In this document: in pieces, positions 9,569-9,808 of the stretch
How positions within the stretch are numbered: the first letter of the stretch is position 1
Layout: each line of letters opens with the position of its first letter
IMG/VR virus record: IMGVR_UViG_2713896787_000009
DNA: 10,163 nucleotides
Source of the DNA: a virus
Lineage: Duplodnaviria > Heunggongvirae > Uroviricota > Caudoviricetes
Direction: 5' to 3' (one strand)
Position numbers and translations under genes: made by a program
Notes under the pieces: model-generated
Seen by the model: the letters and a program-made list of their open reading frames with translations, nothing else
Told to the model about the DNA's origin: nothing
Databases searched by the model: none

Positions 9569-9644
9569 GGCCCTTTAGCTCAGTGGTGAGAGCGAGCGAC
9601 TCATAATCGCCAGGTCGCTGGTTCAAATCCAGCAAGGGCCACCA
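9569..9644 (+). tRNA. tRNA with CAU anticodon: Ile2 (lysidine, ileX/ileZ-like) or Met; encoded CCA
   Basis: Cloverleaf by hand: acceptor GGCCCTT/AAGGGCC, D-stem GCTC/GAGC, anticodon loop CTCATAA, T-loop TTCAAAT, 3' ACCA; resembles E. coli ileX as I recall it. Confidence 0.85.
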
Positions 9645-9645
9645 A

Positions 9646-9721
9646 CCGCCACTAGCCATCAGGAAAGAGCGTCAACCCTTTAAGTTGAGTGTGCGAGGTT
9701 CGAGTCCCCGGTGGTGGTCCA
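9646..9721 (+). tRNA. Aberrant middle tRNA (argN position): G3:U70 acceptor, disrupted D-stem, anticodon loop CCTTTAA (UUU with C33); possible pseudo-tRNA
   Basis: Acceptor CCGCCAC/GTGGTGG with G3:U70; D-stem reduced to 2 bp by a 1-nt deletion relative to copy 2; anticodon stem TCAAC/GTTGA; T-arm CGAGG-TTCGAGT-CCCCG; encoded CCA. Confidence 0.45.
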
Positions 9722-9734
9722 TTATCGGTATTCT

Positions 9735-9808
9735 GCGTTGTTAGCTCAGCAGGACAGAGCAATTGCCTTCTAAGCAATCGGTCACTGGTTCGACTCCAGT
9801 ACAACGCG
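9735..9808 (+). tRNA. tRNA-Arg (anticodon UCU, reads AGA/AGG), argO-like; no encoded CCA
   Basis: All four stems perfect: acceptor GCGTTGT/ACAACGC, D GCTC/GAGC, anticodon ATTGC-CTTCTAA-GCAAT, T ACTGG-TTCGACT-CCAGT. Confidence 0.9.

Follow-up and report, generated by a model that had tools for sequence, protein, structure and literature searches.

Why would a phage carry, between two canonical transfer RNA (tRNA) genes, a third that has lost part of its own fold? This question is raised by IMG/VR virus record IMGVR_UViG_2713896787_000009, assigned to the Caudoviricetes, from which a stretch of 10,163 nucleotides (referred to here as the window) was analyzed. Three tRNA-like genes form a compact operon at positions 9569–9809, lying 3′ of the gene for the late-gene antiterminator Q, and the middle one (9646–9721, plus strand) is aberrant. 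The original prediction for this locus offered three explanations for the middle gene: a pseudo-tRNA, a tRNA of unusual identity, or a regulatory tRNA-like element. We favor a form of the first, with a probability of roughly two-thirds: the middle gene would be a crippled allele or pseudo-tRNA of a prophage UUU (lysine) tRNA, a decaying passenger in the least constrained slot of its operon. What the window contains is most likely a crippled allele of a prophage tRNA that is already annotated and undiscussed, and not a new kind of RNA. In our judgment the parent lineage, more than the pseudo-tRNA status of this copy, is the part that deserves experiment.

A tRNA-like gene with a broken D stem

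The middle gene, which ARAGORN reads as tRNA-Lys(UUU) (anticodon ttt), begins a single base (A9645) after the CCA of the preceding gene, ileZ, and retains much of what defines a tRNA. It has a perfect 7-bp acceptor stem (C1–C7 at 9646–9652 with G66–G72 at 9711–9717), an anticodon arm at 9672–9688 in which a perfect 5-bp stem (UCAAC/GUUGA) closes a 7-nucleotide loop (CCUUUAA), a T arm with a UUCGA-type loop (CGAGG-UUCGAGU-CCCCG, including an A51·C63 mismatch that is common to the parent allele), and an encoded CCA following discriminator U73. Within the acceptor stem, G3 (9648) pairs with U70 (9715), the latter being a C-to-T change relative to the parent in the allele alignment. The loop residues C32 C33 U34 U35 U36 A37 A38 occupy 9677–9683, with C33 at 9678 and the UUU anticodon at 9679–9681. 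Alternative registers for this loop (a UUA anticodon that would read a stop codon, or an 8-nucleotide loop) were considered and rejected because the 5-bp stem and 7-nucleotide loop are unambiguous.

The D arm is where the cloverleaf fails. Its remnant, GCC / AUCAGGAAA / GAGC at 9655–9670 on the plus strand, aligns to intact alleles with a single-column gap: T12 is deleted between 9656 and 9658, and the strands that are left, GCC (9655–9657) and GAGC (9667–9670), form two contiguous Watson-Crick pairs, or at best a third with a bulge, in place of the canonical three to four. G18, G19 and A20 are kept. The perfect acceptor and anticodon stems, collapsed D stem and G3:U70 pair that had been attributed to this gene are therefore all present, and no tool gives it a canonical fold with another anticodon, ARAGORN reporting UUU.

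A further feature of the 5′ end is that the base at position −1 (9645) is A (G in ~26 contigs) and the discriminator (9718) is U73 in almost all alleles. Because A9645 lies opposite U73, an eighth acceptor pair (−1:73) is possible, as in tRNA-His, and such a pair could shift the RNase P cleavage site.

Annotation tools differ in how they treat this gene. It is absent from the matches to Rfam family RF00005 at the gathering threshold (29 bits). A permissive Rfam scan of 9540–9900 (E ≤ 10) gave tRNA-Sec as the best tRNA-clan match at this position, at 15.7 bits (E = 1.9), which is noise; the other permissive matches, “Plastid-ycf2” among them, were set aside as antisense or chance matches to tRNAs. 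By the same scoring, the intact UUU allele reaches 44.4 bits and the allele of phage Evi, which has an intact D stem together with U70 and a C7·A66 mismatch, reaches 37.0, while D-deletion alleles go unreported. The Prokaryotic Genome Annotation Pipeline (PGAP), whose tRNA calling uses tRNAscan-SE, was taken as a stand-in for running that program: among genomes sampled, “tRNA-Lys” is annotated in 18 of 18 with the intact allele and nothing is annotated at the window allele in 11 of 11, nor in 30 of 30 among the matches listed. DFAST-style prophage records, in agreement with the ARAGORN call, label the window allele tRNA-Lys. Because the “aberrant tRNA” is a damaged allele, we suggest that annotations should change; tRNA-Lys labels (for example those in the LC5678xx prophage records) overstate what this allele is, and the silence of PGAP hides what is presumably a transcribed tRNA-like element.

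A lineage with a UUU anticodon

The relatives of the middle gene were collected by two IMG/VR pattern scans, one running from the 3′ end of ileZ to the 5′ end of the downstream gene, argO, and the other seeking this anticodon stem with any loop. Each yielded at least 120 loci, and the frequencies given here apply to the loci listed, not to the population. Two changes only, the T12 deletion and C70U, separate the commonest intact UUU allele from the window allele. Its anticodon arm (UCAAC-CCUUUAA-GUUGA), variable region (GUGUG) and T arm (CGAGG/CCCCG) are all those of the prophage tRNA-Lys(UUU)-like lineage; the intact cloverleaf of that lineage, with a GCUC/GAGC D stem, G3:C70 and recognition by general tools, is what it lacks.

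This comparison changes the meaning of the unusual loop. C33, in place of the canonical U33, and the UUU anticodon occur in every sampled relative with this anticodon stem (20 flanking-sequence variants in at least ~120 viral contigs), and in the whole lineage only position 32 of the anticodon arm varies, being C, U or A. Because they are fixed in every sampled member, C33 and UUU are traits of the lineage and not signs of decay. The original prediction was right that a CCTTTAA loop with UUU and C33 is present, and mistaken in treating it as an aberration of this copy; the only oddities peculiar to the window allele are the D-stem deletion and U70. Among 47 distinct alleles, the 3:70 pair is G-C in 44, G-U in two (the window and phage Evi) and unpaired in one.

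The other side of the family is argN, the tRNA-Arg(UCG) gene of lambdoid prophage clusters, which stands there between ileZ and argO. UUU-lineage alleles are ~83% identical to argN; of 77 positions, 13 distinguish the parent and 15 the window allele from the argN alleles closest to them, the anticodon being UUU and A20 being kept. The window provides an internal comparison, a canonical argN-type tRNA-Arg(UCG) at 10014–10090 (plus strand; ARAGORN; Rfam, 42.9 bits) in a second, partial ileZ-argN-argO cluster, from which the middle gene differs at 18 of 77 positions. Between argN and the UUU lineage there are compensatory double changes at 7:66 (U-A to C-G), 27:43 (C-G to U-A) and 30:40 (G-C to A-U), and U·G intermediates at 27:43 are found among the alleles. 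Over the 47 distinct alleles, 95.9% of cells are paired in the cloverleaf, compared with 29–53% when the 3′ partners are slid by one to three columns. This covariation amounts to about three events on one branch, and we regard it as solid evidence, not overwhelming. Because the parent lineage shows structure-preserving evolution of this kind, the window copy derives from a real tRNA. The proposed comparison with argN alleles needs amending: the gene is homologous to argN and lies between ileZ and argO, but it belongs to a separate lineage, with 13 differences in 77 positions, and is a UUU-anticodon paralogue of argN and not simply an argN allele.

The intact parent, which RefSeq annotates as tRNA-Lys, is as a rule one of four clustered genes, Ile/Met(CAU)-Lys(UUU)-Thr(UGU)-Gly(UCC). 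Among 5,426 complete E. coli genomes, ~600 have this cluster and 797 (~15%) have a UUU-lineage gene of some kind. A scan of one genome per species found the anticodon arm of this lineage only in the E. coli and Shigella flexneri representatives, and we found no published discussion of it. A UUU-anticodon tRNA with C33 on an arginine-type scaffold thus resides in some 15% of complete E. coli genomes.

Several variants of the lineage and its cluster are worth recording. A sub-lineage typified by contig L131 (~28 IMG/VR contigs, and E. coli genomes at ≤95% identity) carries U8-to-C, C11-to-U and C4-to-U changes with all pairs kept as wobbles. Its alleles are unreported by Rfam and unannotated by PGAP in 9 of 9 sampled genomes, and it may be another hypomorphic or decaying form. 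The third gene of the four-gene cluster, itself copied from host thrU, has had its anticodon altered from UGU to UUU (loop CUUUUAA) in contig L149 (~3480–3560, minus strand) and in four IMG/VR contigs like it. Two UUU genes are thereby adjacent, the first of which has A51·C63 repaired to A-U and carries G73. In contigs L136 and L189, host tyrU sequence lies 3′ of Thr(UGU) as a 5′ half only, truncated within the anticodon loop; the sequence that comes next is unrelated and is different in each contig. This arrangement suggests that the prophage cluster took its Thr-Gly pair from the thrU-tyrU-glyT operon of the host, and the point at which tyrU breaks resembles a recombination or attachment site.

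A genuine and widespread allele

The D-stem deletion recurs well beyond the window. Of 5,426 complete E. coli genomes, 226 match a 79-nucleotide probe centered on it at 100% identity. The 301-nucleotide cluster is likewise matched at 100% by eleven PPompW/Stx2a prophage records that have been deposited and by the 30 genomes of E. coli that were listed, while 235 E. coli records carry it with an identity of at least 99%. The genomes listed with the window allele are largely Shiga-toxin-producing E. coli (STEC) of O26, O111, O103 and O145. Because the deletion is identical in the 226 complete genomes and the eleven prophage records, it is not an error of assembly or sequencing, and the concern that it might be one is put to rest.

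Predicted stability and the case for decay

Minimum free energy folding did not discriminate between alleles, and for this reason the energies of fixed structures were used, with the non-canonical A51·C63 left open. The predicted energy of the cloverleaf is −22.3 kcal/mol for the parent and −15.4 kcal/mol for the window allele, with ~5 kcal/mol of the loss coming from the deletion and ~2 from U70, and the gap to the best competing non-cloverleaf fold widens from 2.7 kcal/mol (parent) to 7.9 kcal/mol (window). What remains of the D stem adds almost nothing to the window allele, which is predicted at −15.1 kcal/mol without it and −15.4 with it. Two lesions, a score below the Rfam threshold and a weaker cloverleaf make the pseudo-tRNA the best supported of the three explanations first offered. 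Comparison of alleles shows that the middle gene derives from a structured tRNA by two lesions; it is set inside an operon with conserved promoter-like and terminator-like signals.

A plausible history and fate for this gene can be outlined. The lineage would have begun on the argN tRNA-Arg(UCG) scaffold of lambdoid prophages, changed its anticodon, and thereafter kept evolving as a folded tRNA. The window copy would be co-transcribed with its neighbors, from the operon’s own promoter in lysogens and by Q-antiterminated read-through after induction. The D arm is not required by RNase P or by the enzymes that trim the 3′ end, whose requirements are the acceptor stem, T arm and CCA. Because these three elements are intact, the gene is probably still excised from the precursor, and the RNase P cut at its 5′ end would also free the 3′ end of ileZ one base upstream. 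With two D-stem pairs, the excised RNA would form an unstable L-shaped fold and decode AAA and AAG little or not at all, and its persistence may reflect weak selection on the middle position of the operon.

Several observations pull the other way. The minimum free energy structure of even the intact parent is not a cloverleaf, so the energy argument is a relative one only. The window allele has an intact acceptor stem, anticodon arm, T arm and CCA, and to ARAGORN it is still a tRNA. Both the upstream and the downstream sequence differ among the three contexts in which the D-deletion allele is found (the window, L136 and L189), and on this basis the allele has moved between prophages without being purged and without acquiring further lesions; such spread fits neutrality and would also fit some retained function. 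The 226 genomes have to be read with some care in this regard, as the count is probably largely clonal, and identity across them consequently says little about selection.

The middle slot of the operon

It is informative to consider the window allele beside the others that occupy the same position. The slot between ileZ and argO contains at least five kinds of allele: (a) canonical argN with a UCG anticodon, in many variants that include the copy at 10014–10090; (b) a frequent, broken class in which the anticodon arm is replaced and the T loop is ruined; (c) the UUU lineage with an intact GCUC/GAGC D stem and G3:C70, whose anticodon arm, variable region and T arm are exactly those of the window; (d) the window allele itself; and (e) an 80-nucleotide class derived from the UUU lineage by an 11-nucleotide deletion in the anticodon arm. 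Across the 119 ileZ-X-argO loci listed, where X is the middle gene, nucleotide diversity rises from 0.0025 in ileZ through 0.054 in argO and 0.076 in intact argN to 0.176 over the middle segment as a whole. ARAGORN finds no middle tRNA in 36 clusters among the matches listed, including those with class (b) and class (e)-type alleles. In addition, every UUU-lineage allele seen beside argO bears a lesion: the D deletion and U70 in the window, C7·A66 and U70 in phage Evi, and the arm deletion in the 80-nucleotide class. By these measures no part of the operon is less constrained than the middle slot, which turns over quickly in lambdoid prophages while ileZ is nearly frozen.

The broken class (b) has some features of its own. 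In contig L010 (2719–2818) and ~30 other IMG/VR loci listed, the anticodon arm is replaced by AGACGACACGATAACAGGGTTGTTGG and the T loop reads GCGGGT; this is the commonest single middle-slot allele among the ileZ-X-argO matches listed, with a perfect acceptor stem and no ARAGORN call, and in one contig its G run is expanded to 13.

Alternative readings

The alternative that bears most directly on the parent lineage is one of counter-defense. The PARIS nuclease AriB cuts E. coli tRNA-Lys(UUU) at U36AAUC|A41, and cuts tRNA-Thr(UGU) as well as tRNA-Asn(GUU), and a change at U39 abolishes cleavage (PMC12409363). The OLD nuclease of phage P2 acts above all on tRNA-Thr(UGU) and also on tRNA-Gly(UCC) and tRNA-fMet(CAU) (PMC12445682; bioRxiv 10.64898/2026.07.10.737580), with a motif of paired CNG at 28–30 and 40–42 (PMC12445682). 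Phage tRNAs that evade these nucleases have been described, namely phage T5's tRNA-Lys(UUU) against AriB and a phage tRNA-Thr(UGU) against P2 OLD (PMC12409363, PMC12445682). Compared with these sites, the UUU lineage has U36AAGUU41 where the host has U36AAUC|A41, and CAA/UUG, without CNG, where argN has the P2 OLD motif (C28A29G30/C40U41G42). The motif is lost on both strands because of the compensatory change at 30:40. By its letters, the window gene would thus fit the pattern of a nuclease evader, having the anticodon of a host target and an altered recognition sequence.

Because the cleavage motifs of both PARIS and P2 OLD are absent, the parent lineage may evade these nucleases, and the window gene might be the relic of an undescribed counter-defense tRNA in which the argN scaffold was re-tooled to UUU. 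We consider this unlikely, and put it forward tentatively. Under such a scheme, the intact gene would stand in for host tRNA-Lys(UUU) once tRNA nucleases borne by prophages or satellites are activated, and the copy with a deleted D stem and G3:U70 would be the same gene after selection lapsed; the invariant C33 might additionally block PrrC-type nucleases, which cut 5′ of U34. That the window copy is itself a non-decoding decoy is less likely. There are hints in favor of the scheme, as the partner genes Thr(UGU), Gly(UCC) and the CAU tRNA overlap the PARIS and OLD target lists and the neighboring Thr gene has independently been converted to UUU in five contigs. Against it, the anticodon arm of the Thr(UGU) gene in the four-gene cluster is still of the host type. 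The idea is of interest in that the UUU-lineage arm is without the motifs of two tRNA nucleases borne by competitors of lambdoid phages, namely P2-like phages and P4-like satellites; should the intact gene prove resistant to these enzymes, tRNA genes of temperate phages could be counter-defense cargo and not only a supply for rare codons. Even if so, the window copy would still be only a relic of its parent lineage.

A second alternative is that the window allele is a weak but working tRNA that reads AAA and AAG, is charged by lysyl-tRNA synthetase (LysRS) through U34-U35-U36, and makes do with a reduced D arm of G10-C25, C11-G24 and possibly C12-G22 formed around a bulged A23. The call of tRNA-Lys by ARAGORN, the integrity of the acceptor stem, anticodon arm, T arm, G18, G19 and CCA, the presence of the allele in three prophage contexts without further damage, and the operon’s own conserved promoter are all consistent with this. 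Identity for LysRS in E. coli tRNA-Lys resides in U34, U35, U36 and A73; the UUU anticodon (9679–9681) is present, whereas A73 is absent, the discriminator being U73. Moreover, the Rfam score drops from the parent’s 44.4 bits to below the reporting level and PGAP makes no call, the D stem contributes almost nothing to predicted stability, and C33, U73 and A51·C63 already make the parent a marginal tRNA. Bacterial translation is normally intolerant of D-stem loss. For these reasons we find a working tRNA decidedly unlikely.

It is also worth considering that the gene may be retained as a tRNA-like processing element, in which the acceptor/T-arm helix provides an RNase P site one base past the CCA of ileZ that is needed to separate and mature ileZ, and perhaps argO, from the polycistronic precursor. 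In E. coli, tRNAs that lie close together in a polycistronic precursor are cut apart by RNase P, for which a minihelix of acceptor stem and T arm is an acceptable substrate. The single spacer base at 9645 fits such a role, as does the fact that clearly broken alleles keep a fully complementary 7-bp acceptor stem and a G+C-rich hairpin resembling a T stem. On the other hand, those intact acceptor stems could simply reflect recent decay, and in argN-type clusters the spacer between ileZ and the middle gene is 7–9 nucleotides, so tight coupling of the two is not general. We are highly doubtful of this proposal, and for the regulatory tRNA-like element first suggested we find no direct support.

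The G3:U70 pair invites the idea of an alanine-accepting tRNA with a lysine anticodon, which would either mistranslate or have been silenced by the D deletion because it was harmful. G3:U70 is the major determinant for alanyl-tRNA synthetase (AlaRS) and has been transplanted successfully into other tRNAs, and in the 47 alleles it is found only in the window and phage Evi, each time with a second lesion (the D deletion and C7·A66, respectively). Nonetheless, alanine identity is weakly supported because the pair arises by a single C-to-T transition that keeps pairing, the change most expected under neutral drift, and the features that support G3:U70 (A73, G2:C71 and G4:C69) are lacking, the gene having U73 and pairs C2:G71 and C4:G69 that are reversed relative to tRNA-Ala. 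Such an identity is very improbable.

Finally, an assembly or sequencing artefact of a draft genome, which the draft scaffold with its 50-N gap 180 nucleotides 3′ and a second cluster copy past that gap might bring to mind, is already refuted by the identical allele in 226 complete genomes and eleven independently deposited prophage records.

Organization of the locus

The setting of the operon is that of a lambdoid, Stx-type prophage tRNA cluster, as had been proposed, with ileZ-X-argO placed 3′ of Q. The trio is real and its flanking members are canonical, again as proposed. The ileZ-like tRNA (9569–9644, plus strand; anticodon CAU, CCA encoded) is called by ARAGORN, scores 72.5 bits against RF00005 and is annotated tRNA-Ile by PGAP, and the argO-type tRNA-Arg(UCU) (9735–9809, plus strand) is likewise called by ARAGORN, scores 68.1 bits and is annotated tRNA-Arg. 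The latter encodes no CCA: its 3′ end (9805–9812) has CTA after discriminator G9808, whereas CCA is encoded in ileZ and the middle gene.

Just upstream of the operon lies the Q gene (8684–9373, plus strand, within an open reading frame at 8678–9373); in NZ_AP018808 the identical region carries “bacteriophage antitermination protein Q” at 9125–9814, equivalent to window positions 8684–9373. A consensus scan places a promoter-like site, TTGCAA-17-TATATT, at the end of Q (9357–9385, plus strand), which from its position we infer to be the lambdoid late promoter pR′. It is followed by a G+C-rich 13-bp hairpin at 9434–9463 with A/T runs on either side, called by the scan on the minus strand; on the plus strand, too, the hairpin can be read and is then followed by TTTTGTTG. 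It looks like a tR′-like terminator between Q and the promoter of the tRNA genes. That second promoter-like site, TTGCAA-17-TATTAT at 9531–9559 (plus strand, consensus scan), ends 9 nucleotides before ileZ. A TTGNNN-17-TATTAT element (rarely TATCAT) at the same distance from ileZ is present in all of the 25 most frequent of 56 upstream variants from related loci, among which the surrounding sequence diverges. Because hexamers, spacer and distance to ileZ are kept while their surroundings drift, this promoter is probably real. At the other end, a hairpin resembling an intrinsic terminator, GGCTCGC-TTTT-GCGGGCC followed by a T run (9825–9850, plus strand, found by scan), closes the operon.

Beyond this point the window contains a poly-G tract (G8, 9893–9900) immediately followed by a run of 50 N (9901–9950), an assembly gap. 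The tract is G7 beside an ISEc20 insertion in LC567818, G13 in NZ_AP018808 and G6–G12 at other loci, and 9893–9950 looks like a scaffold join at a hypervariable homopolymer. Past the gap (9951–10163), the sequence resumes midway through a second ileZ and continues with the canonical argN(UCG) and a partial argO; no deposited phage matches this second cluster better than 95.8%. In related loci, small RNA genes of the STnc100, AgvB and AsxR types lie a few hundred bases 3′ of the tRNA cluster (L011, 2841–3110; L241, 4029–4215; L010, 3592–3782), the equivalent region of the window falling past the N gap. Elsewhere in the window, sok (6136–6285; Rfam, 103.9 bits) and hokD (6283–6438) make up a hok/sok type I toxin-antitoxin locus, and paa, a virulence gene for an AcfC-family adhesin (5189–5947), lies between the replication genes and the nin region.

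Comparison with known systems

The closest described arrangement is the ileZ-argN-argO cluster, which was reportedly first described in phage 933W. The three gene names are used in GenBank AP012530 and AP012538, and the cluster is also annotated in phage 2851. Like it, the window operon lies between Q and the late genes, with an ileZ that is nearly identical and an argO that is closely similar. The middle gene shares with argN its scaffold, the D loop with A20, U73 and the spacer to argO, and is 77–83% identical to it. It differs in having UUU in place of UCG, C33 in place of U33 and altered pairs at 7:66, 27:43 and 30:40, as well as a spacer of one nucleotide to ileZ where argN clusters have 7–9, and the window copy has in addition the D deletion and U70. 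C35 of the UCG anticodon is the main determinant for arginyl-tRNA synthetase (ArgRS).

The prophage tRNA-Lys of the four-gene cluster is nearer still, agreeing with the window gene at all but two positions and having the same upstream ileZ, promoter, anticodon arm and T arm. Unlike the window copy, this parent combines a 4-bp D stem with G3:C70, reaches 44.4 bits and carries a PGAP annotation of tRNA-Lys, and the gene that follows is argO in the window, not the Thr-Gly pair.

With the nuclease-evading phage tRNAs the window gene has in common UUU, the anticodon of a prime AriB target. It departs from them in its scaffold, which is of the arginine and not the lysine type; moreover, the window copy is probably non-functional.

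Lastly, the window gene resembles the tRNA pseudogenes and tRNA-like remnants of phage and bacterial genomes in its recognizable cloverleaf ancestry and in a disabling indel in one arm; covariance-based annotation skips it, while ARAGORN still calls it. What distinguishes the window gene from such remnants is its place inside an otherwise intact operon with its own promoter, and the fact that every arm except the D stem has been kept.

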